Assembly: GCA_025363555.1 (NCBI GenBank)
Contig: JANYDQ010000024.1
Location: 1-63,953 of the forward strand
Direction: 5' to 3'
DNA from: Bacteroidota bacterium
GTDB taxonomy: Bacteria; Bacteroidota; Bacteroidia; 2-12-FULL-35-15
Length of the DNA: 63,953 nt
Part shown: positions 325-63,953 of the stretch, piece after piece
Layout of the letters: each line of letters starts with the position of its first letter
How positions within the stretch are numbered: position 1 is the stretch's first letter
Made by a program: the position numbers and the translations under genes
Notes under the pieces: model-generated
The model's database searches: none
Told to the model about the DNA's origin: nothing
The model's input: only the letters and a program-made list of their open reading frames with translations

Positions 325-644
325 TTTGTTTTTGTTTTTCTTGTCTGCTTACTCTGTTCGGTTTTCAGCTACCCCGTTTGTTCAGCGCAGTCCTACAATT
401 GCTCATAACATATTCTTATGAGAAGTTCTAAAAGTACTAAATATTTAATTGCCAATGTTCCTAAAAAACATAAGTCATTTCCCGGCAGGATATGAAGTTT
501 TTTTAAACAAATAGTTTCTGAATAAAAAAAGTCATAAGAGTATTCTCCATAAAAAAAAATTCCCTAAACAAATACTTTTCCCGCTTTTTTTAAATTTGAT
601 TTACAGATAAATTTTAATTACTAAAACTTTAAACTAAAAATCAA

Positions 645-8693: not shown

Positions 8694-9350
8694 ATGTTAG
8701 ACAAAGTTGGAATTGCAAAACGCATTGCAAAAGAAATTAAGGATGGTTATTATGTGAACCTGGGAATTGGGATTCCAACACTGGTAGCTAATTATATTCC
8801 GAAAGGAATAAATGTAGTGCTTCAATCAGAAAATGGATTGCTTGGAATGGGCCCATTTCCTTTTGAAGGGGAAGAAGATTCGGATTTGATAAACGCTGGA
8901 AAACAAACTATAACTACTGTTCCCGGTTCTGCCTTTTTTGATTCGGCAATGAGTTTTGGAATGATTCGCTCGCGGAAAGTGGATTTAACTATTCTGGGCG
9001 CAATGGAAGTTGCCGATAATGGTGATATTGCCAATTGGAAAATTCCGGGAAAGATGGTGAAAGGTATGGGAGGTGCAATGGATTTAGTTGCTTCTGCAAA
9101 AAATATTATTGTGGCGATGCAACATGTGAACAAAGCAGGTGAATCGAAACTATTACCAAAATGCGAATTACCTTTAACCGGAGTTCGGTGCGTAAAAAAA
9201 ATTGTAACCGAATTAGCAGTACTTGATGTTACCCCAGAAGGATTCAAATTATTGGAACGTGCTCCGGGTGTGAGTGTGGAACAAATAAAAAATGCAACTG
9301 GGGGGAGATTGATAATAGAAGGGGATGTGCCGGAGATGGTGATTGATTGA
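8694..9350 (+). CDS. scoB: CoA transferase subunit B
   Basis: VNLGIGIPT, SENGLLG (catalytic Glu region), and MGGAMDLV. Confidence 0.85.
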   Translation: MLDKVGIAKRIAKEIKDGYYVNLGIGIPTLVANYIPKGINVVLQSENGLLGMGPFPFEGEEDSDLINAGKQTITTVPGSAFFDSAMSFGMIRSRKVDLTILGAMEVADNGDIANWKIPGKMVKGMGGAMDLVASAKNIIVAMQHVNKAGESKLLPKCELPLTGVRCVKKIVTELAVLDVTPEGFKLLERAPGVSVEQIKNATGGRLIIEGDVPEMVID

Positions 9351-9391
9351 ATTACTCATTGCTTGGTGGAACGCCTTCCGGTGAAAGGGTA

Positions 9392-11218
9392 ATGAAATAC
9401 TATGTAATGAGAAAATACTTTACTAAACTTAAGTCTCCGTTTTTCATCACTTTAATTTTAATTTCCTTTACGCTTATTTTTTCTGATTATCATTTCAGAT
9501 GGAAAAATGAACAGTGGAAAGGCGCTGTTAATACTGACGCATACTTTTATTATCACTATTTGCCTTCCGTCTTTATAACTCATCATTTAGATACTCCCGA
9601 GCAAAATTCCAAGACGATAAAATATTTTATTGGAACTGCTATTTTTGAAGCACCATTTTTCGCACTTGCCTGTTTTTTTAGTTTTCTACTGCATTATCCG
9701 ATAGACGGGTATTCTATTTTGTTTCCCTTTTTTATTTCTTTAGCCACTTTATTTTATTTGCTGTGGGGATTGTATTTCTTTGGTAAATTTTTACGATTTT
9801 ATTTTATCCCCGAATGGATAATTTGTGTTGCTACTTTTGCTTTGGCATTTTGCACCAATATTTTTTACAATACTGTTGTTGCGCCCGGATGGTGTCATAT
9901 TATAGCTTTTGGACTTGTTTGCTTTTTATTATATCATATTAAAAAACTGTTTGTATGGTTTAATACAAGAAGTTTGCTATTCATTATTGCAACTACTTCT
10001 TTTTTGTTTTTTGTTCGCCCCACTGATGTCCTTATTTTATTAATTGCTCCGTTTCTTGCAGAAGGAAAAACCAATCTAAGAGAAACATTAAAAAATATTA
10101 TTGCTAAAAAAAGAACAATTGGCATTGGATTATTAATTGCTACAATTCCTTTGTTGTGTCAAATTTTGATTTATAAAGTAAGTACCGGTCATTTTTTTGT
10201 TTGGTCTTATACGGGCGAAGGATTTCATTTTCTAAACCCTGAAATTAAAAATGTTTTGTTTAGTTATTCGAAAGGTCTGTTTGTTTATACACCCATTTGT
10301 TTTCTTTCGCTGTTTGGATTAATTGGTGTGCATAAAATAAACCGGTTTTTGTTTTCAGGAATTATTATTACCCTGGCAATAAATGCTTATGTTATTTCTT
10401 CGTGGTGGTGCTGGAATTTCGGATATAGTTTTGGAGCGAGAGCTTTTATAGAGCAATTTCCAATTTATTTTCTTCTTTTTGCCTTTTTGCTTACTACCAT
10501 AAATAAAAAGATTTTAAAAATTTCAATATTTTCCGTTATTATGTTATTGGCATTCCTGAATTTATTTCAAACTTACCAGGCGGAGCGAGGAATTTTGGAT
10601 AAAGATTTTAAAACAAATGCCAAAGGCTATTGGAATGTGTTTTTGAAAACGCGAGGTTGCAGCGAGAAATATTTTCGGTTTCCAGTCGATTCAAGTAAAA
10701 GTAATATGGAAAGAGAAATGGTTTGGTTTAATGATATGGAGAAAAAGGATGATACCTGGATTAACCAACCTACTATTACAAATGAAAACGTACACTCGGG
10801 AAAATATTCGAGTAAGGTAAACAGTCAAAGTAATTATAGTGTCGGGTTAATTAAAAAGATAAATGAAATTCCTTTTTCAAAAAATGTTTTGATAAGAGTT
10901 AGTGGATGGTTTTGTTTGACAGGAAAAGGAAGTAATTCGTTTTTCGCCATTAATTTTGCTAAAGGCGGGAAAGGAATCAACTTTAATACTTTTTTTCTGG
11001 ATGAGAGAATGGAAGAATATGGTAAGTGGGAATATCAAACCTTTGAAATGTATATGCCCAATTTGAATTACTATAAAACCAATTTGGCAGATACTCAAAT
11101 AGAGTTTTATTGTTTTAATAATTCCGAAGTCAATTGTTTTGTTGATGATTTGGACATTGAGATTATTGAATATAAAAAACTGGAACGGCTATTAGATATT
11201 TCGTGGGCAGTTCATTAA
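9392..11218 (+). CDS. polytopic membrane protein, GT-C-like (group A paralogue) with C-terminal jelly-roll/CBM-like domain
   Basis: About 12 hydrophobic spans with an acidic first loop (TDAYFYYHYLPSVF). Motifs are shared with 18067 and 23150 (FVWSYTGEGFHFLNPEIKNVLFSYSKGLFVYTP; SSWWCWNFGYSFGARAF). The C-terminal roughly 165 aa are soluble (VHSGKYSSKV ... CFVDDLDIEI). The ORF-track start at 9347 is TTG; the first ATG is 9392. Confidence 0.6.
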   Translation: MKYYVMRKYFTKLKSPFFITLILISFTLIFSDYHFRWKNEQWKGAVNTDAYFYYHYLPSVFITHHLDTPEQNSKTIKYFIGTAIFEAPFFALACFFSFLLHYPIDGYSILFPFFISLATLFYLLWGLYFFGKFLRFYFIPEWIICVATFALAFCTNIFYNTVVAPGWCHIIAFGLVCFLLYHIKKLFVWFNTRSLLFIIATTSFLFFVRPTDVLILLIAPFLAEGKTNLRETLKNIIAKKRTIGIGLLIATIPLLCQILIYKVSTGHFFVWSYTGEGFHFLNPEIKNVLFSYSKGLFVYTPICFLSLFGLIGVHKINRFLFSGIIITLAINAYVISSWWCWNFGYSFGARAFIEQFPIYFLLFAFLLTTINKKILKISIFSVIMLLAFLNLFQTYQAERGILDKDFKTNAKGYWNVFLKTRGCSEKYFRFPVDSSKSNMEREMVWFNDMEKKDDTWINQPTITNENVHSGKYSSKVNSQSNYSVGLIKKINEIPFSKNVLIRVSGWFCLTGKGSNSFFAINFAKGGKGINFNTFFLDERMEEYGKWEYQTFEMYMPNLNYYKTNLADTQIEFYCFNNSEVNCFVDDLDIEIIEYKKLERLLDISWAVH

Positions 11219-11254
11219 TATAGTTCAATAATTCTTTTCAATTTATTTATTAAA

Positions 11255-13345
11255 ATGCAATTATCGTTTATTAATAATATTTGCAGTCGAACAGACAAGA
11301 ACAAAAGCCTGATTGTTCTGTTATTTTTTATTGTCTTTTTATTTGTCGGCTTATCAATTTATAAAGATTACGGCTTATCCTGGGACGAGGGTACACAGCG
11401 CTCATCAAACGGGTATGTTAATTACAATTTTATTAGATATTATGCCAAAGATCCACTTTTAAACGGATTAGACAAATATCACGGACCCGCCTTTGAACTT
11501 GTTCTTGTTATTGTTGAGAAAATTTTCCATCTTTCCGATACCCGTGAAATTTATTTTATGCGGCACCTCCTTACATTTCTTGTGTTCTTCATTTCCTCTC
11601 TGTTTTTTTATTTACTTGCTTTAAAATTATTTAAAAATTGGAAGCTTGCATTCATCGGGGTTTTGCTATATGTGCTAAGTCCCCATATTTTTTCTCATGC
11701 TTTTTATAATTCAAAAGATTCGATTCTGCTTTCGTTTTTTACCATCAGTATTTATTTACTGATTATGTTTCATGAACGGCAAACTTATTTTTTAGCATTT
11801 ATGTATTCATTTGTGGCTGCCTTCACCATTGATGTAAGAATAGTGGGGATTGTTTTACCTGCCATTTCTTTTCTGTTGCTATTAATTGAACTTGTAACTG
11901 CAATTTGCAATAAAAGAAAACCTGAAATTAATGGTAGTGTGCTGCTGTTTTTTTTATTGCTAATTGCTTTTATCATTTTATTTTGGCCTGTTTTGTGGTT
12001 AAATCCTGTTCATCATTTTCTGGAAGCATTAAAAGAAAACAGCAACTATTATTGGAATTACAAAATTCTTTACTTCGGAAAATATACGTCAGCGCATGAC
12101 TTACCCTGGCATTATTTAATTTTCTGGATTTTTGTTTCTACTCCTGTGATATACTCCGTTTTGTTTCTTACGGGCGCGATATTTTATTGCCAACTGTTTT
12201 TTGTGAAGCCATTTCAATTTGTAAAAGAAAAGAAAAACGAAATGGTAATTTTTATTTGGTTTTCTCTTCCATTAGCGGCAATTGTTTTATTCAAAAGTGT
12301 TGCTTTTGATACCGGACGGCACATGTATTTTATTCATGGAGCATTTATTTTAATTGCAGTTGGTGGCGTTCAAACATTTTATTCGTTGTTTAGAAAAAGA
12401 AAAACGTTTCTTTACTTTTTTAATATTGTCTTGATTTGTTCTTTTGCTGGTGTCATTTATAAAATGATTATAATTCATCCATACGAGCAGTTGTATTTTA
12501 ATGAAGCAATGGGTACTGACATGAATAAAATCAGTACTAACTTTGAAATGGATTACTGGGGCTTGGCTGCCAGGGAAGTTTTAGAAAACATTTTAGCAAA
12601 AGATTCATCATCCAAAATAACACTTTATTCAGAAAATTTTCCTGGAGAATTAAATGCTCAAATTTTATTACCTCTTCAAAGAAAAAGAATTGTTTATACA
12701 AACATTATTGAAAAAGCAAAATACTATATGGCGGATTACAGATGGATTAGAAAGGGGGGATACCCTTATAGTAAAGAGTATTATTCAGCCACTCTTGGTA
12801 ATGCATGTCTTTATACAGCGTTTGTTGTGCGACAAAAAGGAGAAGGATATTCAAAAACGCGAGGCAAAGAACTTATCACTTCGGTTGCTGATTTTGAGAA
12901 TAAGAAAGAGAACAACTGGACGTTCGATAGAATTACAAAACCAAATTCAGCGGCTCACTCGGGTATGTTTTCAACATTCGTGGATAGTGCAAATGAATAT
13001 AGCAATATGTATATATTGCCGACAACCGAAATACTGTTAAATAAAAAAAATGTTGTTCTAAAAACTTCTTTTTGGAAATATGAAACGAAGTCGGGTTCTG
13101 ATGCTAAATTTGTGGTTAGTATTGAATCCAAAAATGGAACATCTTATTTTTGGCAAACCATTAATGAAATATGTACAAAAGAAAAAACATCGGAGTTTGG
13201 ATGGGAAAAAATAACGGGCGAGGTTGATTTACCTGAAATACGATCAAATGGAGATATAATAAAAGTCTATTTGTGGAATGTTGGCAAAAAGCAAATTTTT
13301 ATGGATGATGTGGAAATTCATTTTGTTCAGGAAGCTTATAATTAG
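11255..13345 (+). CDS. GT39/ArnT-PMT_2-like membrane glycosyltransferase (group B) with C-terminal jelly-roll/CBM-like domain
   Basis: First-loop LSWDEGT, then YHGPAFE, and many TM spans. C-terminal AHSGMFSTFV ... KVYLWNVGKKQIFMDDVEIHF. Confidence 0.6.
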   Translation: MQLSFINNICSRTDKNKSLIVLLFFIVFLFVGLSIYKDYGLSWDEGTQRSSNGYVNYNFIRYYAKDPLLNGLDKYHGPAFELVLVIVEKIFHLSDTREIYFMRHLLTFLVFFISSLFFYLLALKLFKNWKLAFIGVLLYVLSPHIFSHAFYNSKDSILLSFFTISIYLLIMFHERQTYFLAFMYSFVAAFTIDVRIVGIVLPAISFLLLLIELVTAICNKRKPEINGSVLLFFLLLIAFIILFWPVLWLNPVHHFLEALKENSNYYWNYKILYFGKYTSAHDLPWHYLIFWIFVSTPVIYSVLFLTGAIFYCQLFFVKPFQFVKEKKNEMVIFIWFSLPLAAIVLFKSVAFDTGRHMYFIHGAFILIAVGGVQTFYSLFRKRKTFLYFFNIVLICSFAGVIYKMIIIHPYEQLYFNEAMGTDMNKISTNFEMDYWGLAAREVLENILAKDSSSKITLYSENFPGELNAQILLPLQRKRIVYTNIIEKAKYYMADYRWIRKGGYPYSKEYYSATLGNACLYTAFVVRQKGEGYSKTRGKELITSVADFENKKENNWTFDRITKPNSAAHSGMFSTFVDSANEYSNMYILPTTEILLNKKNVVLKTSFWKYETKSGSDAKFVVSIESKNGTSYFWQTINEICTKEKTSEFGWEKITGEVDLPEIRSNGDIIKVYLWNVGKKQIFMDDVEIHFVQEAYN

Positions 13346-13443
13346 AAAATGATTCATTGATTTTTCTGTTTTCTTCAAATCATTTTTCTATTTTTGACGA
13401 TAAACAATTATTTAACTGATTTAATCTTTATAAATATTACATA

Positions 13444-14163
13444 ATGTCAATATCCAAATTATCTATCATTATTCCTGCTTATAACGAAGCGGCTACTATT
13501 CATTTTATTTTAAATAAAGTAATTGCAGTTAAATTAATTAATGATATTGAAAAAGAAATTATTATTGTGAACGATTGCTCGAAAGACAAAACACAGGAAG
13601 TGATTGAAACATATATCAAAGAACACGGTGAGTTTAATATCCGGTTGTTTAACCAGGAATATAATCAAGGGAAAGGTGCTGCGCTGCACAAAGGAATTTC
13701 TCTGGCTACAGGAGAATATTTGATAATACAAGATGCCGATTTGGAATACGACCCGGAAGAATATAATATATTGTTAAAGCCAATAATTAATGATTTTGCA
13801 GATGTGGTGTATGGTTCCCGCTTTATGGGAGGAAAGCCACATCGTATTTTATTTTTCTGGCATACATTAGGAAATAAGTTTCTTACTAATCTTTCCAACA
13901 TGTTTACCAATCTGAACTTATCTGATATGGAAACATGTTATAAATTATTTAAAACCGAAATTATACAAAGCATCAAACTAAAAGAAAACCGTTTTGGTTT
14001 TGAACCCGAAGTAACTGCCAAAATTTCCCGTGTTCCTAAAATAAGAATTTACGAAGTTGGTATTTCTTATTATGGACGAACTTATGAAGAAGGAAAAAAG
14101 ATAGGATGGAAAGATGGTTTCAGAGCTATGTGGTGTATATTGAAATATAATCTTTTTTCATAA
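13444..14163 (+). CDS. family 2 glycosyltransferase, polyprenol-phosphate sugar synthase type (DPM1/GtrB/ArnC-like)
   Basis: [42 protein letters not shown] (DXD), and YGSRF.. in a 239-aa soluble protein. Confidence 0.75.
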
Positions 14164-14178
14164 CTATTTTTTCAACTT

Positions 14179-16176
14179 GTGAAAACCCTTAATAATATTG
14201 AAAAAGCATTTGGGTACATAAGTACTAATGTTTGGCTACTACTTTTTGTTATAGCCAATTTTCTTCTTAAAACCTTTCAAATTTCTTCCCAGAGTTTGTA
14301 CGGAGATGAGCCCTATAGTATATTCTGCGCTCAACAATCTATAAATGATTTAATCCCCGTTTTTTTAACAGACCAAAATCCACCTTTACATATTTCTTTA
14401 TTACATGTCTGGATGAATCATTTTGGAATTACAGATGTTTCAGCTAAAATGTTATCTGTTACCTGTAGTGTTTTAGCAAGTGGAATTTTGTTTTTGTTTG
14501 CAAATAAATTTATAGATAAAACAACTGCCATTTTTGTTTCTTTTCTTTTTTTGTTTTCTAATTCACAGCAATACTTTGCTACTGAAGTACGTCCTTATGC
14601 ATTAATTCAACTTTTGTGTATTTCCTCTTTTTATATTTATTATTTACTGCTTATTAATCCGAAATTAAAACACCTCTTCTTTTTATTTATTATAAATCTC
14701 CTGTTAATTTTCACTCACTATCTTACCATTTTTGCCTTTGTTGTTCAGTTTTTAGGTATATTATTTTATTTCAGAAAAAACAGGAAAACGGTTATTTATT
14801 ACTTTATCAGCCAGGTAATGGTGATACTCGTATTACTCCCCTGGCTAAAAATTGCTTTTTCAAATATTCCCAAAAATGGGGCGTTCTGGAATACAATACC
14901 GAACTATTTTGCCTTCAGATGGCATGTTAATATTTTATTAGGAAATGAAGTATTGTATTATGTATTTAACGGGATAGTAATTTGTTCTGTATGTTTATTT
15001 CTGTTGAACAAAAAAATTAATGTATTTAATAAAATTTTTAATTGGAGGTATTATTTAATTTTTCTTCTGCTGTATATTTTACCAATACTATTGAATTTTA
15101 TTGTTGCCCAATATTCGCCCGTATTTACAACCCGGTATTTTCTTTATTCATTATTCGGTTTGTTTTTATTTGTTGCGTATTCTTTTAGTAGCTTAAACAT
15201 TCATTCTGTATTTAAAACTATTTTATTTTTACCGTTCCTTTATCTCCTGTTTACGTCATTTCTTGTGGTCCAGGAACGGCAGGACGATTGGAAACATATA
15301 GTTCCGGACATAGTAAAACTTAAAAAGCCTAATACTTTAGTTTATATATCTGCATCTTATAAATATAAAGACTTTTCGTTTTATTATGACATTGATGCCT
15401 TTAAAGATTATCAGCATACTATTGACCGTCTTGCCAAAGAACATGTTTTTGTTACCCCAATCAATGAATCGAAAGGGTGGGAAAAATTAAATTTCAACTT
15501 AATTCAAAATGTTATTTATGTACAGGCACATAGCCAGTTTGAAGATTCGTTAAATCAAATAAAACCTTATATCGTAAATAAAGGATTTACCGAATGCAAT
15601 CATTTTCAAAAAGGCGGAATACAATATACTGTATTTATTCGCGATACTATGGAATGTTATTCGGCAAAAATAACATCAGAAAATACAAGTGTCGGTTGTG
15701 ATTTATTAGAGCATTATAGTGGCATACATGAAACGACTGATTCTGTTGAAATTTACAAAACCTCTTTTGAGTATCCCGAAAATTGCCCGGCTTACCAGGG
15801 AATAACTGACAAGATAAAATATACAGGAAACCATTCTTTCAGAATAAATGAAGCAAATCAATTTGAATTAGGATTAATAAAACCTAAACATGATTTATTG
15901 AAAAACAAAAAGAATATAAATGTAGCCGCCTATGTTAATGTGGAGGAGGGAAACGATGGTTGGTTAATTGTTTCGGTGGAGAAAGGGCCCCTTACTTTAT
16001 TCAGAAATAATATCTATCTGAAGGAAAGTATTAAAGTATATAATAAATGGCAGAAAATAACTTTGAGTTCTCTTATTCCTGATGATGTACCGGATGATGC
16101 CGTAGTAAAAATATATTTCTGGAACCCGGGGAAGAAAAATATTTTTGTTGATGATTTTTCAATCCAGGTTTTTTAA
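14179..16176 (+). CDS. GT39/ArnT-PMT_2-like membrane glycosyltransferase (group B) with C-terminal jelly-roll/CBM-like domain
   Basis: First-loop YGDEPYS and multi-span topology. The C-terminus KIYFWNPGKKNIFVDDFSIQVF matches 11255 and 9392. It uses a GTG start, with no in-frame ATG near the N-terminus. Confidence 0.6.
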   Translation: MKTLNNIEKAFGYISTNVWLLLFVIANFLLKTFQISSQSLYGDEPYSIFCAQQSINDLIPVFLTDQNPPLHISLLHVWMNHFGITDVSAKMLSVTCSVLASGILFLFANKFIDKTTAIFVSFLFLFSNSQQYFATEVRPYALIQLLCISSFYIYYLLLINPKLKHLFFLFIINLLLIFTHYLTIFAFVVQFLGILFYFRKNRKTVIYYFISQVMVILVLLPWLKIAFSNIPKNGAFWNTIPNYFAFRWHVNILLGNEVLYYVFNGIVICSVCLFLLNKKINVFNKIFNWRYYLIFLLLYILPILLNFIVAQYSPVFTTRYFLYSLFGLFLFVAYSFSSLNIHSVFKTILFLPFLYLLFTSFLVVQERQDDWKHIVPDIVKLKKPNTLVYISASYKYKDFSFYYDIDAFKDYQHTIDRLAKEHVFVTPINESKGWEKLNFNLIQNVIYVQAHSQFEDSLNQIKPYIVNKGFTECNHFQKGGIQYTVFIRDTMECYSAKITSENTSVGCDLLEHYSGIHETTDSVEIYKTSFEYPENCPAYQGITDKIKYTGNHSFRINEANQFELGLIKPKHDLLKNKKNINVAAYVNVEEGNDGWLIVSVEKGPLTLFRNNIYLKESIKVYNKWQKITLSSLIPDDVPDDAVVKIYFWNPGKKNIFVDDFSIQVF

Positions 16177-16212
16177 CTGTCAGGAAAAATAATTCGTTTT
16201 AATTATATAATT

Positions 16213-18021: not shown

Positions 18022-18066
18022 TTTTTTATCTGAAGTGAAAACAAAAACAAACTTTACCATTTTTGG

Positions 18067-19803
18067 ATGAACACTTTAAAAGCCATTTTTGAATTTTCTG
18101 TCAAGTATGTTTGCGAACTTGTTTTACTTATTTGCCTTGTTATCACTTTTTATCAGCAGATAAATAACGACAAGTGGAAACAAATTATCCGGTCGGATGG
18201 TTTGGGTTATTATGCTTATTTGCCGGCAGTTTTTATTTATCACGATTGTAAGTTTGAATTCTTAAAAGAGATAGATAAAAACTACAACATGAATCAGTAT
18301 TCCGGTGGGATGATAAAATCAACTCCCCTTGGCAAAGTAAATAAATTTTATGTTGGATTAAGTATTTTTTGGCTGCCATTCTTTTGGCTCGCTCATCTTT
18401 TTACTTTATTTTCGGGAGGGGTAACAGATGGTTATACTTATTACTATCAAATTTTTATTGCTATTGCAGCTAATTTTTATTTGTGGTTAGGGTGTAAATT
18501 TACAAGACGGTTAATTATAAAATATGCTGTTTCCGAAAAAATTTCTGCATTTATTATTTTATTAATTGTGTTTGGAACAAATCTTTCGCACTATGCAACT
18601 TACGATTCAAATGGAACACACGTTTATTCGTTTGCGGCTATTGCGGCTTTTTTACTTTCCAGTCATTCTTTTTTTGAACATCAAAAAAGTAAATATCTTT
18701 ATTGGTGTGCCTTTCTTATCGGGATAATATTTCTTTTGCGCCCATCTAATATATTAGTGATTATACTGTTTCCGTTTTTTACTACGTCATTATATACATT
18801 TATAACATGTATTAAATCACTGAAAAAAGAAATCGCAATTTGTTTTTTAATATTTTTGATTACTATTGTTCTTCAATTTATTTTTTATTTTTTACAAACC
18901 GGGCATTTTATAGTTTGGTCGTATGATGATGAAACATTTAATTTTAGTAAGCCTGAATTTTTAAATGTTCTTTTTAGCTACCGCAAAGGATTGTTTATAT
19001 ATGCTCCTTTAATTTTAGTATCGCTTTCCGGGCTTTATTTTTTATTCAAAAAAAATAAATTTCAATTTTCAGTGCTGTTATTCTTTCTTCTTATTAGCTG
19101 TTATATTATTTCCAGTTGGTGGTGCTGGAGTTACGGATGTTGTTTAGGGCAGCGTTCTTTTGTAGATTATTCAGCCATTTTTGCATTATTATTTTCGTTT
19201 TTGTTTTTGGGCATTTCAAAAAGCAATTATTTAAAAGCATTGTTGTTGGGTTCAGCTCCTCTTTTTATTTTTTATTCAATGATGCTTTCTTTTCAATTTG
19301 AACATAATATTATTAGCTGGGATGAAATGAACAAAGAAAAATTTTGGGCAGTTTTTATGAAAACAGGTGCAGAATATGAAGGGCTTACATCCTCCAAAGG
19401 ATTATTTTCTGGCAATGACGAATACCACCCGGTTTCTATTAAGGCGGCTAACAATTTATTTTTATGTGCAGATGAATTTGTTTCAGACCAATTTATTATG
19501 GTGAATAGAAACGCAAGCCAGGCATGGGAAACATTCAACCTTATAAATGCAGGTGATAATAAAGTTGCTTTTAAAACATATCGTGGAAATTATATTTCTG
19601 CACGATTGGATTCCGGAAGTGTGATTAAATATTCTGTGAATAAATTAAACAATTGGGAAACATTTGAAATGATTCCGTTCGGAGATAAAATAGCCCTCAA
19701 GGCATGTAATGGTAAATATGTATCTTTAAACGGAGACAGGCTTTTTGCCAATTCTGATTGTTTATCAGGTTCCAACTGCTTTTTTACATTGGGGGTAAAA
19801 TAA
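18067..19803 (+). CDS. polytopic membrane protein, GT-C-like (group A paralogue) with C-terminal fascin-like beta-trefoil domain
   Basis: SDGLGYYAYLPAVF, IVWSYDDETFNFSKPEFLNVLFSYRKGLFIYAP and SSWWCWSYGCCLGQRSF. C-terminal VSIKAANNLFLCADE..AWETFNLINAGDNKVAFKTYRGNYISA..NNWETFEMIPFGDKIALKACNGKYVSL. Confidence 0.6.
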   Translation: MNTLKAIFEFSVKYVCELVLLICLVITFYQQINNDKWKQIIRSDGLGYYAYLPAVFIYHDCKFEFLKEIDKNYNMNQYSGGMIKSTPLGKVNKFYVGLSIFWLPFFWLAHLFTLFSGGVTDGYTYYYQIFIAIAANFYLWLGCKFTRRLIIKYAVSEKISAFIILLIVFGTNLSHYATYDSNGTHVYSFAAIAAFLLSSHSFFEHQKSKYLYWCAFLIGIIFLLRPSNILVIILFPFFTTSLYTFITCIKSLKKEIAICFLIFLITIVLQFIFYFLQTGHFIVWSYDDETFNFSKPEFLNVLFSYRKGLFIYAPLILVSLSGLYFLFKKNKFQFSVLLFFLLISCYIISSWWCWSYGCCLGQRSFVDYSAIFALLFSFLFLGISKSNYLKALLLGSAPLFIFYSMMLSFQFEHNIISWDEMNKEKFWAVFMKTGAEYEGLTSSKGLFSGNDEYHPVSIKAANNLFLCADEFVSDQFIMVNRNASQAWETFNLINAGDNKVAFKTYRGNYISARLDSGSVIKYSVNKLNNWETFEMIPFGDKIALKACNGKYVSLNGDRLFANSDCLSGSNCFFTLGVK

Positions 19804-19859
19804 TAAAGTAACTTATATAAAAAAAAAAGCTGTTTTTGTTATTGACAGTAGATTAAACA

Positions 19860-21440
19860 ATGAATAAAATAATTAATAAATCAGAATTCCTTTTTTTTAT
19901 TTTAGTAGTACTGTTAAATCTTTCTCCCGTTTTATCTACTAACTATTTTTGTACCCTTGATGGTGGCTCACACGCCAACAATGCACATATTATAAAAACC
20001 CTGTTAACTTCTTCTCACAGTATTTATTCTGATGTATATAAAATAAATCCCGAATTAGTTCCAAACTGGTCGGGGCATTTCGTATTGGCATTTCTAAGTT
20101 TATTCTTTGCCAATTATGTGTCAGAAAAAATCTTGGTCTGTTCCATTTTAATACTTATCCCGTTTTTTTTCAGAAAAATTGTAAAACTCATCGCTCCCGA
20201 TAATGCAGTGATGTGTTACCTTATTTTTCCCTTTACCCATTATGTGCTGTTATATTTAGGGTTCTTTAATTTTACCATCGGCATTTTATTCTTTTTTATT
20301 ACTGTTTATTTTTATTTAAAACATTCTCTTAATTTTAAATGGCAACACTATATTATTCTCTTCCTTTTATCAGGAGCACTTTACTTTTCCCATCTTTTTG
20401 CTTTTGTCGTTACTATATTTTATTTAGCATTACATTCATTTTTTGTTGCCTTGTTCGATTCTGAAAATACGTTTTGGTATCGTTTGCGAAAAAAAACACT
20501 TCCGGTACTTTTGTGCTCGCTTCCATTTCTGTTACTTACTATAAACTATTTTGCCAACCGACCACCAAAACCTCCCAGCCAGGTTTCCTTTTTACCTGCC
20601 GAAAGAATATGGGTAATGATTAGAGACGGTTATGTTTTTTCGATAGATAATATAGCAGAAAGACCTTTCGCCAGATTGTTTTTCTTTGTACTCATCGTTT
20701 TATTTTTTGTTGTACTTATTAAAGGCATTATTTTCTTTTTCAACAACCCGGACAAAAAGAAGATGGTATGTTTATTTTTTAAAAAACCAGTTTCCTCTTT
20801 CCTGGTACTTGTTATCTTTTTGTTGTCTATGACGTTTGTTTTTCCCGATGGTGACGGGTACGGAGGATTTATAACTTTGCGTTTTATTTATTTTGCAGTT
20901 CTGTTTATGTTATTATTTTCATTGGAGTTAAGTTATTCAGGAAAAAATTTCAATATCCTATTACTGTTTATTGTCGGTTTTTCGTATTTTAATTTAACAG
21001 ATTTTCGTACCAATCAAATTATGTGGACCAATAATGAGCGGCATCAGCTCGAAAAGGCATTTGAGAAAATTCACACTAATTCTTCTTTGTTAACTTTCCG
21101 GCTGCAAAAAAATGACAACTGGTTTTTAGGCCACTTTATGGAATATGCCGGAGCGGATAAAGACATTCTGATATTGAATAATTACGAAGCAGCCGAAAAA
21201 TATTTTCCTGTTATTTATTTGGAAAATAAAACAGCAAAATATACAGCGGGAGAATTCAATCTTTTCATGGGGCAAACATTACAGGGAACTAATGATACCA
21301 TTAAAAAAAAGATAGATTATGTTTTAATATATGGTTTAAAAAATGAAGATACCGAATATACCCAAATGGTGAAAAGTATAGGAAATGAATATAACCTTGT
21401 TTACGATTCGCCACGGGTAAATTTATTTAAGAAACAATAA
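19860..21440 (+). CDS. polytopic membrane protein (possible GT-C-like), unknown function
   Basis: 526 aa with about 10 hydrophobic spans and a soluble C-terminal roughly 150 aa. Co-oriented with the preceding membrane glycosyltransferase-like genes. No recognisable catalytic motif. Confidence 0.45.
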   Translation: MNKIINKSEFLFFILVVLLNLSPVLSTNYFCTLDGGSHANNAHIIKTLLTSSHSIYSDVYKINPELVPNWSGHFVLAFLSLFFANYVSEKILVCSILILIPFFFRKIVKLIAPDNAVMCYLIFPFTHYVLLYLGFFNFTIGILFFFITVYFYLKHSLNFKWQHYIILFLLSGALYFSHLFAFVVTIFYLALHSFFVALFDSENTFWYRLRKKTLPVLLCSLPFLLLTINYFANRPPKPPSQVSFLPAERIWVMIRDGYVFSIDNIAERPFARLFFFVLIVLFFVVLIKGIIFFFNNPDKKKMVCLFFKKPVSSFLVLVIFLLSMTFVFPDGDGYGGFITLRFIYFAVLFMLLFSLELSYSGKNFNILLLFIVGFSYFNLTDFRTNQIMWTNNERHQLEKAFEKIHTNSSLLTFRLQKNDNWFLGHFMEYAGADKDILILNNYEAAEKYFPVIYLENKTAKYTAGEFNLFMGQTLQGTNDTIKKKIDYVLIYGLKNEDTEYTQMVKSIGNEYNLVYDSPRVNLFKKQ

Positions 21441-21697
21441 AATATACATAAGAATTGTTTCGAAGAATAAAACGGTAGAATTAAAAAATCTTAACATTGT
21501 TTTCTTAAAATAATATTCTCAAAGAAATAGAAAAACGTAGAAATGCACCCCCATTTTTTAAAGTATCGTTTTTTTTAATTAACACCAGCCCTTCACTTAT
21601 CAACAAAAAAAGCCAATAAAATTAGTACTTACAGCGATTTTGTAAATTCTCCTTACAAAACTTGCACTATCTGCAATCGCTACTTTTGGGCAATTAA

Positions 21698-21705
21698 TAC
21701 ATTTG
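21698..21705 (+). promoter_or_regulatory. Bacteroidota -7 box candidate (TAnnTTTG) for the XRE gene
   Basis: TACATTTG lies 30 bp upstream of the ATG at 21736. A second match, TACTTTTG, is at 21681-21688. Small inverted repeats (AGCGATT..AATCGCT, TTTGTAA..TTACAAA) lie nearby. Confidence 0.3.
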
Positions 21706-21735
21706 TCGAAAATTAATAAAAACATTTTTTGATTT

Positions 21736-21996
21736 ATGACAGGAGTGAATGTACGAGGGAAATTAATTCGTAAACGGAGAGAAGAAAAAGGGTTATCACT
21801 TTTAGACGTGGCAATAAAAATAGGAAAGTCGGAATCTTATATGAGCAGAATTGAAAACGGAAAAATTAATTTGACAGAGCAATATGAACTAATGATTGTT
21901 ATTATTTTGTGGGACTATTTGGAACATTATCAAAATGAATACGCAACACTTTTCAGGAAAGAGGGCTTGGATAAAAAATTTTTGTACCTGAAATAA
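21736..21996 (+). CDS. XRE-family helix-turn-helix transcriptional regulator
   Basis: GKLIRKRREEKGLSLLDVAIKIGKSESYMSRIENGKINLT is a canonical HTH_3 pattern. The last 7 codons already belong to the 21-bp array. Confidence 0.7.
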   Translation: MTGVNVRGKLIRKRREEKGLSLLDVAIKIGKSESYMSRIENGKINLTEQYELMIVIILWDYLEHYQNEYATLFRKEGLDKKFLYLK

Positions 21997-22353
21997 AAAT
22001 AGTTTTTTAAACTTAAAAAACAATTTTGAAGCAAGAATAAATGATTTTTGAAAGCTGGAAAATCATTTTGTAGCAAAAAGAAATCATTTTTTAAACTTAA
22101 AAAATAATTTTGTAGTAAGAATAAATGATTTTTGAAAGCTGAAAAATCATTTTGTAACAATAATAAATTATTTTTTAAACTTAAAAAACAATTTTGTAGT
22201 AAGAATAAATGATTTTTGAAATGTAGAAAATCATTTTGTAGTAATAATAAATCATTTTTTAACCTTAAAAAACAATTTTGCAAGAAGTAAAAATAGTTTT
22301 TTAAAAGTAAAAAATGATGTTGTAACAATAAAAAATGAATTTTAAACGTAATA
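21976..22353 (+). repeat. tandem array of 18 units of exactly 21 bp, organised as four 84-bp super-repeats
   Basis: Every unit begins AAA(T/C)NATTTT. Examples: aaatcattttttaaacttaaa / aaacaattttgtagtaagaat / aaatgatttttgaaagctgaa / aaatcattttgtaacaataat. Super-repeats at 21997, 22081 and 22165 are roughly 90% identical, and the one at 22249 is more diverged. The array ends 36 bp before the ATG at 22389. Confidence 0.9.
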
Positions 22354-22388
22354 ATAAATTAATATAAACTAAATAACACTAAAATAAA

Positions 22389-23081
22389 ATGGCAGATTTA
22401 ACCTTTGTAGAACCAACAGACCCAAAATTCAGCTTGCAAATATTGAAATTTGCAAACCGATTACCTACTTATTCGGCAATAGTAGGAGTAACCACAGCCG
22501 AAAAAAACAGCGCACTGGCAGATGCCGTATTTTTTGAATACGTTGTAAGCTGGATGGGTGTAAACCGTGCTTTTTCGGTTAGTTCCACTTCTTATAAAGA
22601 CCTTGCCAGGGTTCAAATTGGTGCAGAAGTGCTTCCTGCGGTGCCGCCCACCCCGGTGGCAGATACTCCTCCGGCATTGGTGGAGGCAGGAATTCAAAAG
22701 AGGTTTACTGATTTGGCAGAGCGGATTAAAAAATCTCCGAATTATACTTTTACAATAGGTGAAGCATTAGGAATTGCAAAATCGGTTGCGCCTTTTGTTC
22801 CCGGAGACGGCAAACCAATATTGAAATTGACATTGGTAGAAGGAGGTTTTCCGCAAATTGGATATAAAAAAGGAAAATATCAAAGTTTGATGATTCAGAA
22901 AGAAGACAAAGATGGGGTAATGAATTTATTAACTATTTCTGTTCCTGCAAAATATGTGGACAAAGCAGATATGCCGCTTCAGGGAGTTACTAAAAAAGTG
23001 AAATACAAGGCTATCTATATGTATAAAGGGGCACCGGTGGGCGAATGGAGCGATGTTTTTACAATTACTGTTACGGGGTAA
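22389..23081 (+). CDS. hypothetical protein, Fn3-tail family paralogue 2
   Basis: 230 aa with no signal peptide. It has an N-terminal helical region, the P/T-rich linker AVPPTPVADTPPALVE, and a C-terminal beta-sandwich ending KYKAIYMYKGAPVGEWSDVFTITVTG (Fn3-like Y.Y....G.WS motif). Confidence 0.6.
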   Translation: MADLTFVEPTDPKFSLQILKFANRLPTYSAIVGVTTAEKNSALADAVFFEYVVSWMGVNRAFSVSSTSYKDLARVQIGAEVLPAVPPTPVADTPPALVEAGIQKRFTDLAERIKKSPNYTFTIGEALGIAKSVAPFVPGDGKPILKLTLVEGGFPQIGYKKGKYQSLMIQKEDKDGVMNLLTISVPAKYVDKADMPLQGVTKKVKYKAIYMYKGAPVGEWSDVFTITVTG

Positions 23082-23105
23082 GAAATAAAATAATAAATAG
23101 TGATT

Positions 23106-23139
23106 AAAAAAGTTCTGTGTAAATGCAGAACTTTTTTTT
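23106..23139. terminator. bidirectional rho-independent terminator between convergent genes
   Basis: AAAAAAGTTCTG (23106-23117) pairs with CAGAACTTTTTT (23126-23137). A-run on one side, T-run on the other. Confidence 0.7.
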
Positions 23140-23149
23140 ATTTATAGAC

Positions 23150-24922
23150 TTATTTTACCGCTTTCAAAACAGTTGCTGTTAAATTTAACAGCTTCATTTT
23201 TTTATCTCCATCAATATACACATACGACAGGATTTCATAGTTTTTATTATTTGCCTGTGGCGGAATTAAAACGGATAAATCTATTGGGGCTTTTGTGTTT
23301 TTAATGTCCGAATAATTAAAATCGCGGGAACGGTATTTATATAATTTTCCATCTTTATTAATAACAGTAACTAAATGGGCAGTTATGTCAGATGATGTGT
23401 TTGCGGTATTGGTATCTGCCATTACGGAGGTTATTAAATAATTATCCTGCACATCGTATCCCAAATTTGCGGTCACTGTTATTGATTTAGAAAAAGCAGT
23501 ACCGGCATTTAACAGAGCCGAACTTTCGTTTAGTGATAAATTGCTGCTATATACTTTGTCATATTTTAATGAAAGATTCAGTGCATCTTTGCCATCTGCA
23601 TATTGAGCAGGTTCCAGCCATCTTTTGTCTTCCTCGGTTGCTTCGCCTTTTAAAAATACTCTCCAGTAATATTCTTTAGTGGTAAGAGTGGTATGTAATA
23701 TCCCGTTTTCCGCCTGGTGGGTTTGAAATAAATTAAGATGAATAATAACCAAACTCAATACTAATGCAGTAATTACAACAAGTTGTTTTTTTAACGAAAG
23801 GTAATGAATGAATGCTGCTAACGGAAAAGCCATAAACACATAGCTTTCTACAAAAGGTCGCTGTGCAAACGAACCACCATACCACCAGCAATCCCAGCAG
23901 GAAACAAGATAAGTGTTTACTATGAAGAATATAAAAACGGGGAGAAACAATTCGCGATGTTTTTTAAACAAACTAACAAAACCCCAGATAGCAAAGCACA
24001 TTAAGGGTGTGTACAGCAGCCATCCTTTTTTGTAACTAAATAAAACATTAAGTAAATGTGGTTTTGATAATTGTATTTTTTCGCCCGGATAACTATAAAA
24101 CAACCATTGCCCGGAAACCGATTTCCAATAAATAAGTTGAGGAAGAATAACCAGGAAAGCAACACCGCCAATAACAAAGAGATGATAAAATTTATGTATG
24201 AAAAGTTTTATTCTTGCCCTCATAGAATCTAAACTCCACACCTTCCATAACAATGGAATAATAACTACTACAGCACTTGTAGGGCGAATAAGTACTGATA
24301 TGCCAATACAAAAACCAATGGTTATAGCGTATTTTAATTTTTGAACTTCATACCATTTAATGGTGTTATAAAGCATGATGGCAAAAAATGTAAAAATAAA
24401 ATTATGAGGCATCAATCCGTCATAAGCTGTCATTACAAAATAATTGCTTCCAAACACCAGCAAAGCAATGGTAGCAAAAACAATGGTTTCGCTGAAATAA
24501 AGAGAAAGAATTTTAAATAAATAATAAATACCAAGCAAGGAAAAAAACAAAGCACAGAGCATCATCATCCATTGGTAAGGAGGCGAAAACCCATCTCTGT
24601 CGAAATGAAAGAGCATTGCCATAAAATCGGCAACAAAAAAGAAAGGGGCATATACAAAGGATAAACCCATGGTATATTTCATAACCAATTTATCTTTCGG
24701 TCCTTTGTATGCCTGGTAAAATCCTTCGGTGGTATGATATTTTTCTATAATAGGATTTAACCACACTTCTTTTTTTTCTAAATGTATATCATCATAAATA
24801 AACTGGGCAGGCAGATAGAGATAATAACCAAACACATCCCAATCGAGCCGGGTATGGCGTTTTGAACTATTGAAAACAAAAACGCATAAAAAAAATAAAA
24901 TGAAAATGGATTTCCGTGTCAT
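23150..24922 (-). CDS. polytopic membrane protein, GT-C-like (group A paralogue) with divergent C-terminal beta-rich domain
   Basis: WDVFGYYLYLPAQF, LFYSYPGEKIQLSKPHLLNVLFSYKKGWLLYTP and SCWDCWWYGGSFAQRPF. The C-terminal roughly 170 aa are soluble. Confidence 0.6.
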   Translation of the reverse strand: MTRKSIFILFFLCVFVFNSSKRHTRLDWDVFGYYLYLPAQFIYDDIHLEKKEVWLNPIIEKYHTTEGFYQAYKGPKDKLVMKYTMGLSFVYAPFFFVADFMAMLFHFDRDGFSPPYQWMMMLCALFFSLLGIYYLFKILSLYFSETIVFATIALLVFGSNYFVMTAYDGLMPHNFIFTFFAIMLYNTIKWYEVQKLKYAITIGFCIGISVLIRPTSAVVVIIPLLWKVWSLDSMRARIKLFIHKFYHLFVIGGVAFLVILPQLIYWKSVSGQWLFYSYPGEKIQLSKPHLLNVLFSYKKGWLLYTPLMCFAIWGFVSLFKKHRELFLPVFIFFIVNTYLVSCWDCWWYGGSFAQRPFVESYVFMAFPLAAFIHYLSLKKQLVVITALVLSLVIIHLNLFQTHQAENGILHTTLTTKEYYWRVFLKGEATEEDKRWLEPAQYADGKDALNLSLKYDKVYSSNLSLNESSALLNAGTAFSKSITVTANLGYDVQDNYLITSVMADTNTANTSSDITAHLVTVINKDGKLYKYRSRDFNYSDIKNTKAPIDLSVLIPPQANNKNYEILSYVYIDGDKKMKLLNLTATVLKAVK

Positions 24923-24925
24923 GGT

Positions 24926-26083
24926 TTAATTATTAACTGCGTTTTCTTTTTTCAGCAAATCATACATTTGTTCAATAAAATTATACCCGCAATTAACTAA
25001 ACTCGATTCGTTATAAACAAGCACTATAAAGTCCCGGTTAAGCGTTTGCTCTTTTAAATTTAATTTAGACACCGGGTATTTATCCATACCATTAATTTGG
25101 GGCCAGCCTACTTCTTTGTTATAATACCAGTAAGCAGATTTATCACTCACCAAATTAGGGATATAACTGTCCGTGCCTATCCAGCTCCATACAAAACTAT
25201 CGCCAACCAAAAGAACATTGGGTTTTGTTTTTTGCGTATCTTTTTTAATTATCAAGTTGGGATAATACATCGGGAAAGAAGGAATATCGCGGACCAGGTT
25301 CATTGCCTGCCCTATGTCAGCATCTGTTCTTTCAGGTTGAGTAGTTTCCCTTCCTCCTGCATAATAATAATTCGGCATATCAATATGGCGCATATTTTCC
25401 ATATATTTTATTAATGTATCAGCCGCCAAAGTAGAACCATATATACTCCAATGAATTCCGCATCGCGTAAACAGTGCGTGTTTGGCAGTTGGTTTCAGTT
25501 TTAAAAGAAATTTCCTGAAATCAATATAATTTATTTTTTGTTTTTCAAATTGTTCGGTGTATGCATCATAATTACTCCTTGTTTTTTTTGAAATGTCGTA
25601 TTTGTCGGGCAGAAATTCAGAATAAAAAGCCGACTTACCCGGGGTGATTAAGAACAATAAATCAATGTTCCGCTTCTTTAATTCCGATTGAACATAATAG
25701 AGTTTGTTTACTTTATCAATTACTGCATCTTCTCCAACAAAATCTTTTCCAATAAATCCCTTTGTATATCCTGCACCAAATAAAAAGTGGTTTTTTCCTT
25801 CCTCTACATCTTTTACATTGATGGTATCGAACACAGAATACCCTATTTGATTGTGAAGGCGGGTCAAAAAGGTATGAGTATCCATGTTTTGCTCATAATA
25901 TTTCATCACTGTATCCTGGTAGTTTCCACTCAACCAGTTTTCAAGAGTAAAAGTTGGTTTTGGCATATTAACAATCCCGCCTTGCAGCGGAGTGGCGTTA
26001 AGCCACTGAAAACGGTTTTGAAGAAGTTCCCCGCAAACAGCCAGGAAAAACAAAACAAATAAGCTATGTTTAATTACTTTCAT
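24926..26083 (-). CDS. AlgX/AlgJ-like SGNH-fold protein (putative glycan O-acetyl-transferase/esterase)
   Basis: N-terminal anchor; an HW motif in CGIHWSIYG (DHHW-family-like); LLVGDSF (GDS block). Immediately upstream of, and co-oriented with, 23150-24922. Confidence 0.4.
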   Translation of the reverse strand: MKVIKHSLFVLFFLAVCGELLQNRFQWLNATPLQGGIVNMPKPTFTLENWLSGNYQDTVMKYYEQNMDTHTFLTRLHNQIGYSVFDTINVKDVEEGKNHFLFGAGYTKGFIGKDFVGEDAVIDKVNKLYYVQSELKKRNIDLLFLITPGKSAFYSEFLPDKYDISKKTRSNYDAYTEQFEKQKINYIDFRKFLLKLKPTAKHALFTRCGIHWSIYGSTLAADTLIKYMENMRHIDMPNYYYAGGRETTQPERTDADIGQAMNLVRDIPSFPMYYPNLIIKKDTQKTKPNVLLVGDSFVWSWIGTDSYIPNLVSDKSAYWYYNKEVGWPQINGMDKYPVSKLNLKEQTLNRDFIVLVYNESSLVNCGYNFIEQMYDLLKKENAVNN

Positions 26084-40995: not shown

Positions 40996-41170
40996 AGTAT
41001 AGGTGTTTTGATTGCGGTGATAAAAGTAATATAAAATTCTATTTTTGTCAGTAATATTATAATGATTAATTTCGCTGACTTTGAAAAAGTGAAAAGTTTT
41101 TATTTACCAAAGGTTCTACCTTTTGAAAAAGGCGAATCTTTTGTTCAAATCAGGAATCACCAATAAAACT

Positions 41171-43597: not shown

Positions 43598-43635
43598 TGA
43601 ATTTTATAATAACGAATAATTAACGAACCAATAAA

Positions 43636-44499: not shown

Positions 44500-44515
44500 A
44501 ACAACTTAAATAATT

Positions 44516-45448: not shown

Positions 45449-45451
45449 CCA

Positions 45452-46435: not shown

Positions 46436-46481
46436 GGTCACCAATTACGAATCAATATCAATTTCCAAATCGAAATTTTAA

Positions 46482-47538: not shown

Positions 47539-47675
47539 CTACCCTCCGCATCTGTTGGGGATAACGGGAATTCCTTCATTAAGAAATGCTCAGATAAGTT
47601 CTTTTAAGGTTCAACAAGATAATTTTATATCTTCGGGCTTTCTCTTTTTAAATATTTACAGTTAGTTTTATTGGT

Positions 47676-49617: not shown

Positions 49618-49620
49618 GCC

Positions 49621-63768: not shown

Positions 63769-63953
63769 CCGTAGCAGCGTCCCTTGCTGGTGTTCAAAGT
63801 CTAAAATAGTCCCCCCGTTGGGCGTAGTTGTGCCGTGAATCATTTATCAAGATGACAAAGATAAGTGAATGTTGTATAAAAGATGATAGCAGGTCTATCA
63901 TAAGCAATGTGCAAGCATAGCTTATAAACCACCTCTCGGTGCTTTTTGAGTAA

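Follow-up and report, generated by a model that had tools for sequence, protein, structure and literature searches.

Seven genes for multi-span membrane proteins lie with a single gene for a soluble glycosyltransferase of family 2 (GT2) at positions 9347–26083 of a 63,953-nucleotide stretch of Bacteroidota DNA (the window: contig JANYDQ010000024.1 of assembly GCA_025363555.1, analysed at its full length), and the question that this island raises is what so many membrane proteins might do with one sugar-transferring enzyme. A preliminary description, made from the sequence by itself, had proposed that one lipid-linked sugar donor feeds a battery of outward-facing transferases of the glycosyltransferase C fold (GT-C), that different fused sugar-binding modules select the targets of these transferases, and that the arrangement is a bacterial analogue of the eukaryotic PMT-plus-MIR proteins. 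Our results favour, with a probability of roughly two in three, the reading that the island is an expanded, flippase-less polyprenol-phosphate-sugar/GT-C system that acts outside the cytoplasm, and that probably decorates or builds an envelope glycan.

Probable membrane glycosyltransferases of the island

The island comprises nine main open reading frames (ORFs), that is, seven membrane genes (M1–M7), the GT2 gene and a gene for an AlgX-like protein, each of which lies where the preliminary description had placed it. M1–M6 and the GT2 gene are on the plus strand, with intergenic gaps of 15–98 bp, and each of the seven membrane proteins has 8–11 hydrophobic segments. Pfam searches of ten island ORFs found no Wzx, Wzy, Wzz, ABC-exporter or nucleotide-sugar domain, as had been surmised earlier. 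The results support assignment to GT-C for six of the seven, which between them represent three or more sequence families with no relationship to one another; the earlier notion of a GT-C-like battery is supported for these six, through structural models, paralogy and similarity to PMT_2/ArnT, but not for M4, for which no Pfam, PDB or profile match to the membrane part was obtained.

M1 (9347/9407–11218, plus strand), M5 (18067–19803, plus strand; 578 aa) and M7 (23150–24922, minus strand; 590 aa), which carry the motifs TDAYFYY, SDGLGYY and WDVFGYY, respectively, are the three proteins that had been called clear paralogues, and the alignments bear this out: they are 30–33% identical over ~400 aa, with blastp E values of 1e-46 to 7e-58 (M5 vs. 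M1, 33% identity and E 7e-58; M7, E 1e-46 and 6e-46). The M1 ORF is open from 9347 (623 aa), but its homologues begin at Met21, corresponding to 9407 (603 aa); the start previously given, 9392, is Met16. A recent local duplication was considered as the origin of the three genes and was rejected, since their mutual identity is only 30–33% and orthologues of M1 elsewhere are 50–65% identical to it. Structural models searched with Foldseek, the check that the preliminary description had proposed, gave GT-C matches for M1 and M6. The AlphaFold2 model of M1, built from 37 homologues, has a predicted local distance difference test score (pLDDT) of 90.1, a predicted template-modelling score (pTM) of 0.87 and ~11 transmembrane (TM) segments; its membrane domain has matches in the PDB to GT-C structures only (PglB, EmbA/B/C, ALG12 and STT3), and Asp44 in the first loop is invariant in the M1 family. 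A search of PDB sequences with the M1 profile found no match for the membrane part. M7 matches PMT_2 (9.1e-8) and Glyco_transf_22 (1e-5) in Pfam, both exceeding the gathering score, and all three paralogues weakly match NCBIfam NF047440 (the LA_3751/LA_3752 family of putative glycosyltransferases) over ~290 membrane-domain residues (E 2e-4 to 3e-8), at 20–33 bits vs. a 200-bit cut-off. We conclude that the model of M1 supports its assignment as a GT-C membrane glycosyltransferase and, because M5 and M7 are its paralogues, we count these two as GT-C as well.

The model of M6 (19860–21440, plus strand; 526 aa) has a pLDDT of 92.3, a pTM of 0.93 and ~11 TM segments, and the top 12 Foldseek matches are all GT-C structures (STT3, PglB, the C-mannosyltransferase DPY19 and AftA among them), with probabilities below 0.15 thereafter. 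The family is small (47 matches), and Asp34, within the sequence TLDG, is near-invariant in it (≥90% of sequences). Searches of Pfam and NCBIfam gave no match, a search of PDB sequences with the M6 profile gave nothing for the membrane part, and an hhalign comparison with M1 was marginal (49% probability). The model supports assignment of M6 as a GT-C membrane protein. Membership in the oligosaccharyltransferases was also considered for M6 and was rejected for lack of the WWDxG motif; a regular-expression search for this motif was negative in all seven membrane proteins.

M2 (11255–13345, plus strand; 696 aa) and M3 (14179–16176, plus strand; 665 aa) contain the first-loop motifs that had been quoted for them, LSWDEGT (WDE) in M2 and YGDEPYS (GDE) in M3, and an Asp-Glu motif at this position is kept in ≥90% of the M2/M3 family. 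Both proteins match PMT_2 (PF13231) below the gathering score (E 2.6e-5 for M2 and 3e-3 for M3), as does, weakly, a 49%-identical orthologue of M3 in a related island (locus L086). When 11 M2/M3-type proteins from related loci were aligned, eight matched PMT_2 (best E 5.9e-13), and the top PDB match of the family profile was ArnT (5ezm), colinear over 350 residues with E 0.056. The results support assignment of M2 and M3, by sequence similarity, as PMT_2/ArnT-like GT-C. In contrast, PMT (PF02366), MIR and PMT_4TMC (PF16192) gave no match in Pfam searches of the island proteins.

The resemblance of M2 and M3 to PMT_2 raises the alternative that these and other island proteins move sugar from polyprenol phosphate onto Ser/Thr residues of periplasmic proteins in one direct step, and might install, for instance, the reducing-end mannose of the general O-glycan of Bacteroidota. 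A 2025 review gives mannose as the reducing-end sugar of this glycan and states that the oligosaccharyltransferase, the ligase and the core flippase 'remain undiscovered' (PMC12871550), which leaves a place for such enzymes; the Asp-Glu first-loop motif and a GT2 unusually conserved across orders (65–88% identity) also fit. However, the model in that review relies on en-bloc transfer from undecaprenyl pyrophosphate (PMC12871550), a phylum-wide step should use a conserved transferase, whereas close relatives differ in how many GT-C genes, and of which type, they carry and the M6 family has few members, and the carbohydrate-binding module (CBM) and lectin modules described below point to glycan, not peptide, acceptors. 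Together with the missing PF02366, MIR and PMT_4TMC matches, these observations make direct protein O-glycosylation distinctly improbable in our estimate.

M4 (16213–18021, plus strand; 602 aa) differs from the other six in that its family assignment is putative. It has 10 TM segments and belongs to a very large family (most members of 440–490 aa; at 50% identity and E up to 1e-3, it comprises 5,896 clusters) in which Asp29, Asp118, His155, Cys242 and Cys399 are invariant, as are Asp, Tyr, Arg and His residues with a predicted periplasmic position. The membrane part had no Pfam match, neither in M4 itself nor in sets of 29 and 40 relatives, apart from weak EpsG matches in two of the 40. Comparisons by hhalign with M1, M6 and PMT_2-like profiles gave nothing significant (17.5% probability with the PMT_2-like family, for the first loop only). 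In one relative (L087), an M4 homologue and the GT2 form a two-gene island, and it is because of this pairing that we argue for use of a lipid-linked sugar by M4, which would probably make it a GT-C. In another (L088), an M4-family gene follows genes for Wzz and Wzy_C, a position that is compatible with a polysaccharide acceptor.

Predicted sugar-binding modules and topology

M1, M2 and M3 have homologous C-terminal parts of ~150 residues (25–29% identity by blastp), which correspond to modules at approximately nt 10694–11176 (M1, the last ~160 residues), 12851–13330 (M2) and 15802–16170 (M3), all on the plus strand. No Pfam model matches these modules. The model of the M1 module matches CBM16 (3oeb and 2zey; TM-score ~0.57 on the target) and CBM22 structures in Foldseek, and the M1-type profile matches CBM22-1 of Xyn10C (4xun) with E 3e-3, because of which we assign the M1/M2/M3 module as a predicted CBM4/16/22-like jelly-roll. 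When M2/M3-type and M1-type profiles were aligned by hhalign, the module alone aligned (99.7%, E 1.8e-25) and the membrane domains did not. The modules had been described as swapped, and the alignments of one jelly-roll on unrelated membrane domains confirm this: module swapping between unrelated GT-C membrane domains is, at the level of sequence, real.

Two further proteins carry beta-trefoils. In M5, a C-terminal fascin/FRG1/DUF7910-type beta-trefoil (approximately nt 19450–19782, plus strand), searched as an isolated domain, exceeds the cut-offs of DUF7910 (PF25490; 1.8e-9, 38.2 bits), FRG1 (PF06229; 5e-7, 30 bits) and Fascin (PF06268; 1.3e-6, 29 bits). In M4, a ricin-B beta-trefoil (approximately nt 16969–17382) lies in the loop between TM7 and TM8, matches RicinB_lectin_2 (PF14200; 5.2e-29, 101 bits) and PF00652 (39.5 bits), and contains three Q-x-F repeats with a spacing of 48 aa. 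Precisely the ricin insert is missing from about half of the relatives of M4, and these insert-less homologues are 440–490 aa long. By contrast, the C-terminal 150 aa of M7 had no significant match in Pfam, in the PDB or by hhalign against the CBM profile, and the tail of M6, which the model folds as a small alpha/beta domain, received no assignment from the searches. The lectin-type modules announced for the island are accordingly found on five of the proteins (jelly-rolls on M1, M2 and M3, the ricin B domain of M4 and the fascin-like domain of M5), but the tails of M6 and M7 were not identified as lectins. Outside the window, M1/M5-type membrane domains occur bare (430–460 aa), with one jelly-roll (~600 aa), with two jelly-rolls (759–767 aa; L012 and L022) or with a trefoil.

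To place the modules relative to the membrane, the helices of the M1 and M6 models were compared with the Lys/Arg distribution (positive-inside rule). The pattern suggests for both proteins an N-terminus inside, ~11 TM segments and a C-terminal domain outside; the Asp of the first loop and the remaining conserved loops would then be on the outer side. A conserved acidic residue follows TM1 at a short distance in every family: Asp44 in M1, Asp34 in M6, Asp29 in M4 and the Asp-Glu of M2/M3. For M4, the sequence suggests seven TM segments, a 300-residue periplasmic loop bearing the ricin insert, and three TM segments; the invariant Cys pair flanking the insert is compatible with a periplasmic disulfide. 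The expectation that C-terminal modules face the periplasm is supported by the charge pattern on the model helices, but does not describe M4, in which the ricin domain is internal rather than C-terminal. We consider the further claim, that the fused modules select the targets of the transferases, to have been overstated.

The GT2 and its genomic partners

The GT2 (13444–14163, plus strand) had been classed with DPM1, GtrB and ArnC, and the searches agree. The protein has 239 aa and no TM segment, matches PF00535 with E 5.6e-35 and has a DAD motif at residues 97–99; its best PDB matches are the dolichyl-phosphate mannose synthase (DPMS) of P. furiosus (5mlz; 3.5e-14, residues 4–220), Synechocystis GtrB (5ekp) and ArnC (9hwj). 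In NCBIfam it matches AglJ (97.7 bits vs. a cut-off of 325, the best of these), ArnC (55.8 vs. 529), PpgS (49.6 vs. 370) and a Dol-P-hexose transferase family, in every case below the equivalog cut-off. We conclude that the GT2 is a putative soluble DPM1/GtrB/ArnC-like polyprenol-phosphate sugar synthase. A processive synthase was considered for this protein and rejected: it is DPMS-like, 239 aa long and without a TM segment.

The GT2 is the single putative polyprenol-phosphate sugar synthase of the island, as had been claimed, but not of the window: a second lipid-linked-sugar pair lies at 47676–49617, consisting of a GT87 gene (PimE-like GT-C, 3.4e-19) and a gene for a 246-aa GT2, the PDB matches of which are GtrB only, with a 14-nt overlap between the two. 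Upstream of this pair are genes for an MMPL transporter, a sugar nucleotidyltransferase, an epimerase/dehydratase, a polyprenyl synthase and an acyltransferase (context 41123–50391), and a polysaccharide deacetylase gene follows it.

To set the island in a wider context, relatives of M1 were collected from one genome per species. At least 567 were found, essentially all in Bacteroidota (Flavobacteriales, Bacteroidales, Chitinophagales and metagenome-assembled genomes labelled Chryseobacterium), and 80 loci, selected solely for an M1-like gene, were kept. A GT2 orthologue (65–85% identity) is present in the flanks of at least 17 of the 80, in many cases immediately upstream of M5-like and M1-like genes in tandem; this count is a lower bound, many of the loci being incomplete at their ends. 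Over all comparisons, GT2 orthologues adjoining GT-C genes in other genomes are 65–88% identical to the GT2 of the window. In a Chryseobacterium locus (L011), an operon with unrelated genes on both sides has the order GT2 (315 aa)-GT22-like GT-C (396 aa)-GT2 (240 aa)-M5-like-M1-like. The part GT2-M5-like-M1-like also occurs in a metagenome-assembled genome labelled Chryseobacterium gleum (L059). Clusters of a GT2 with GT-C genes thus recur across Bacteroidota, and the arrangement, whose distribution and synteny the preliminary description had asked about, is not unique to the window. The 'two novel tandem genes' reported in the literature for Flavobacterium collinsii, considered as a possible counterpart, are Wza/Wzz-type genes unrelated to the island.

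Four genomes, including that of the window, have an island at the same chromosomal site, after the gene for CoA-transferase B, with one, three, at least five or seven membrane genes and always with the GT2. The smallest (L087) consists of a ricin-less M4 homologue and the GT2 (77% identity) and nothing else; the next (L003 and its sister contig) has M1, a 637-aa protein, the GT2 and a DUF6311 protein, the last of which takes the place of M3–M6; the third (L086) has a 635-aa protein, the GT2 (88% identity), M6-like, M4-like and M3-like proteins and a 629-aa protein; and the window has seven membrane genes and the GT2. Because the GT2 is 77–88% identical among these islands, whereas the membrane genes are only 28–60% identical and vary in number, the sequence comparison identifies the GT2 as the conserved anchor of a variable set of membrane genes.

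With the GT2 and its partners in view, a reading can be weighed in which the membrane proteins use oligosaccharides linked to undecaprenyl pyrophosphate, as ligase, polymerase or oligosaccharyltransferase, and the GT2 is an ordinary cytoplasmic transferase, so that there is no common donor. That STT3 and PglB are the best structural matches of M6, that PglB is among those of M1, that an M4-family gene adjoins Wzz and Wzy_C and that two of 40 M4 relatives weakly match EpsG all fit this reading. However, none of the seven proteins has WWDxG, the nearest solved relatives of the GT2, aligned up to residue 220 of 239, are all polyprenol-monophosphate synthases, the island has no initiating phosphoglycosyltransferase and no Wzx, and the tight pairing of the GT2 with GT-C genes, including the two-gene island, is typical of systems with monophosphate donors. 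We judge the use of pyrophosphate-linked donors to be very unlikely.

Beyond the nine main genes, the island and its surroundings contain the following. The AlgX-like gene (24926–26083, minus strand; 385 aa) lies 3 bp upstream of M7 on the same strand, in keeping with the co-orientation noted earlier; its product has an ALGX/SGNH domain (PF16822, 2.3e-17) and a single N-terminal TM segment as anchor, and a homologue (30% identity) adjoins a GT2 and GT-C cluster in L031. Its gene forms an operon with M7, and we regard the protein as a putative O-acetyltransferase or esterase that would act on glycans in the periplasm. Between M6 and M7 are a small helix-turn-helix (HTH) gene (21736–21996, plus strand), a tandem repeat with a period of 42/84 nt (21992–22351; ~8 or 4 copies, 75–84% matches) and a 230-aa soluble ORF (22389–23081, plus strand) with no Pfam match. 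One relative likewise has an HTH gene and a 230-aa gene beside its island, and the interposed stretch as a whole (21736–23081) is probably outside the system. The G+C content is 0.30–0.315 over the island (9347–26083) vs. 0.37–0.41 upstream and 0.33–0.39 downstream, which is compatible with a variable or exchanged locus or with the codon bias of membrane proteins. A promoter and terminator scan gave counts at or below shuffle expectation, with models that do not cover Bacteroidota promoters. The upstream flank carries genes for DNA polymerase III delta', PSP1, GldH, a class A penicillin-binding protein and CoA-transferase A/B, a set that marks the window as Bacteroidota DNA. Close to the island on its downstream side, an 884-aa ORF (27824–30478, minus strand) with no Pfam match neighbours a gene for an SLT-TPR lytic transglycosylase (26272–27720). 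At the extremes of the window are a DUF805b RNA motif (346–378, minus strand; 36.5 bits vs. a gathering score of 35.6) and a group II intron (RF01999, 40.7 bits; 63885–63953), of which the window end leaves only the 5' part.

A candidate mechanism and its relation to known systems

According to the hypothesis that the island is an expanded polyprenol-phosphate-sugar/GT-C system, the soluble GT2 would, at the cytoplasmic face, load polyprenol (undecaprenol) phosphate with a single monosaccharide taken from a nucleotide sugar, and the lipid-linked sugar would reach the periplasmic face through a flippase encoded outside the island. There it would serve as the common donor for GT-C of at least four unrelated families (M1/M5/M7, M2/M3, M6 and probably M4), in which the conserved first-loop Asp or Asp-Glu would face the periplasm. 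The fused jelly-rolls and beta-trefoils, likewise periplasmic, may bind the acceptor glycan or the product, and the GT-C, which would all add one and the same sugar, would differ in the position or linkage that they serve on an envelope glycan, for which an O-antigen, a capsule, a glycoprotein glycan or a dedicated polymer are candidates. The AlgX-like protein might then O-acetylate or de-esterify that glycan.

Several results weigh against this hypothesis. Because the GT2 falls below every NCBIfam equivalog cut-off, neither its sugar nor its lipid can be assigned from these families, and the linkage of the GT2 to GT-C genes is the sole support for use of a lipid-phosphate donor. Many M1-family genes elsewhere have no GT2 within 10 kb; one M1 orthologue (L004, 10001–11812; 52% identity), for example, stands by itself in this respect, between a BREX defence cluster with a gene for a small protein bearing a type IX secretion system C-terminal domain (T9SS-CTD) on one side and a pyruvate carboxylase gene on the other, because of which we conclude that the donor synthase need not be linked. 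The best structural matches of M6 are oligosaccharyltransferases, which use pyrophosphate-linked donors, and NCBIfam and PDB profile searches with M4 gave no significant match. Sugar binding by the modules is deduced solely from their fold. Finally, neither Pfam searches of the island ORFs nor a search of the whole window for small multi-TM ORFs, of which there were none, revealed a flippase of the GtrA, SMR, MATE or Wzx type, and the island contains no genes for synthesis of an acceptor.

The logic of polyprenol-phosphate-sugar plus GT-C systems is itself already known from Gtr, GT136 and Emb/Aft enzymes. In three-component O-antigen modification by Gtr proteins, GtrA is the flippase, GtrB the undecaprenyl-phosphate-glucose synthase and GtrC a serotype-specific GT-C. 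The related GT136 systems for pentofuranoses follow the same logic (PMC11127046). The island resembles both in the linkage of a DPM1/GtrB-class GT2 to GT-C genes, in a conserved synthase that appears to serve exchangeable GT-C, and in a locus that varies between relatives. It differs from Gtr loci in having no GtrA, SMR or MATE gene, in a GT2 without the two C-terminal TM helices of GtrB, in having not one GT-C gene but as many as seven, of at least four families, with CBM or trefoil modules on the GT-C, and in having no recognisable O-antigen locus or prophage around it.

The mycobacterial EmbA/B/C and AftA–D enzymes offer a second comparison. In these, as proposed for the island, a single lipid-monophosphate donor (decaprenyl-phosphate-arabinose or polyprenol-phosphate-mannose) feeds many GT-C; EmbA/B/C, which are Foldseek matches of M1, combine a GT-C with a C-terminal periplasmic CBM, and AftA is among the matches of M6. 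However, similarity is not detectable at the level of sequence (8–12% identity in Foldseek), the island proteins are half the size, with ~11 TM segments and one small CBM, they belong to a diderm phylum, and the donor synthase of the island is of the DPM1 type, not dependent on phosphoribosyl pyrophosphate.

An alternative modelled on these enzymes is a periplasmic assembly line, in which the GT-C set would build a branched homopolymer from a single lipid-linked sugar while the CBMs hold the chain, in the manner of the mycobacterial Emb/Aft proteins, which make arabinan out of decaprenyl-phosphate-arabinose. Seven transferases with one donor synthase and no Wzx, Wzy or ABC genes fit this idea, as do the EmbA/B/C matches of full-length M1, with the same layout of GT-C and C-terminal CBM, the tandem CBMs of some homologues (L012 and L022) and the fact that the island is self-contained in several genomes. 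On the other side, the island offers neither a primer nor an initiating enzyme, nor a gene for export through the outer membrane, the minimal islands, with one membrane gene and the GT2, are a better fit to addition of side chains, and gene content differs between close relatives as it does in modification loci. We consider such an assembly line unlikely, and slightly more so in its explicit form, that is, a Gram-negative periplasmic line in which one polyprenol-phosphate sugar is polymerised and branched by CBM-tethered GT-C. If true, it would represent polysaccharide assembly without Wzx/Wzy, synthase or ABC transporter, a Bacteroidota counterpart of mycobacterial arabinan and mannan synthesis, in which glycan structure is reprogrammed as GT-C genes are gained or lost, or exchange modules, at one fixed hotspot of the chromosome.

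The comparison with eukaryotic PMT-plus-MIR proteins is not the closest one, because bacteria already have CBM-fused GT-C that act on one lipid-linked donor (EmbA/B/C); these, which M1 matches in Foldseek, and Gtr-type systems are nearer. M2 and M3 do share the PMT_2 match and the Asp-Glu first-loop motif with PMT (GT39) and ArnT (GT83), and the layout of M4 (~7 TM-trefoil-3 TM) mirrors that of PMT (7 TM-MIR in loop 5-4 TM). But the island has no PF02366, MIR or PMT_4TMC domain, the membrane part of M4 has no detectable similarity to PMT, its trefoil is of the ricin type and is missing in many family members, and M2 and M3 have a C-terminal jelly-roll and no loop trefoil. The remaining relatives, NF047440 (LA_3751/LA_3752) and Pfam DUF6541/DUF6311, which M1/M5/M7 match weakly, are uncharacterised too.

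What is new in the expanded system favoured here is the families themselves, three of which (the M1/M5/M7, M6 and M4 types) lack a Pfam model; how many GT-C genes a single synthase would supply; and the combination of one jelly-roll shuffled across unrelated GT-C families, replacement of the jelly-roll by a trefoil, and a fixed hotspot without a flippase gene. None of these three types has a characterised member, and, should they prove to be glycosyltransferases, new CAZy GT families would be needed for them. The system is compact and tractable in cultivable relatives, of which Chryseobacterium carries a GT2-GT-C-GT-C operon, and could show how fused sugar-binding modules direct GT-C to their acceptors and how a hotspot lets Bacteroidota vary their envelope glycans. 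It has a bearing, finally, on the missing periplasmic steps of glycan biosynthesis in Bacteroidota, including the flippase for monophosphate-linked sugars.

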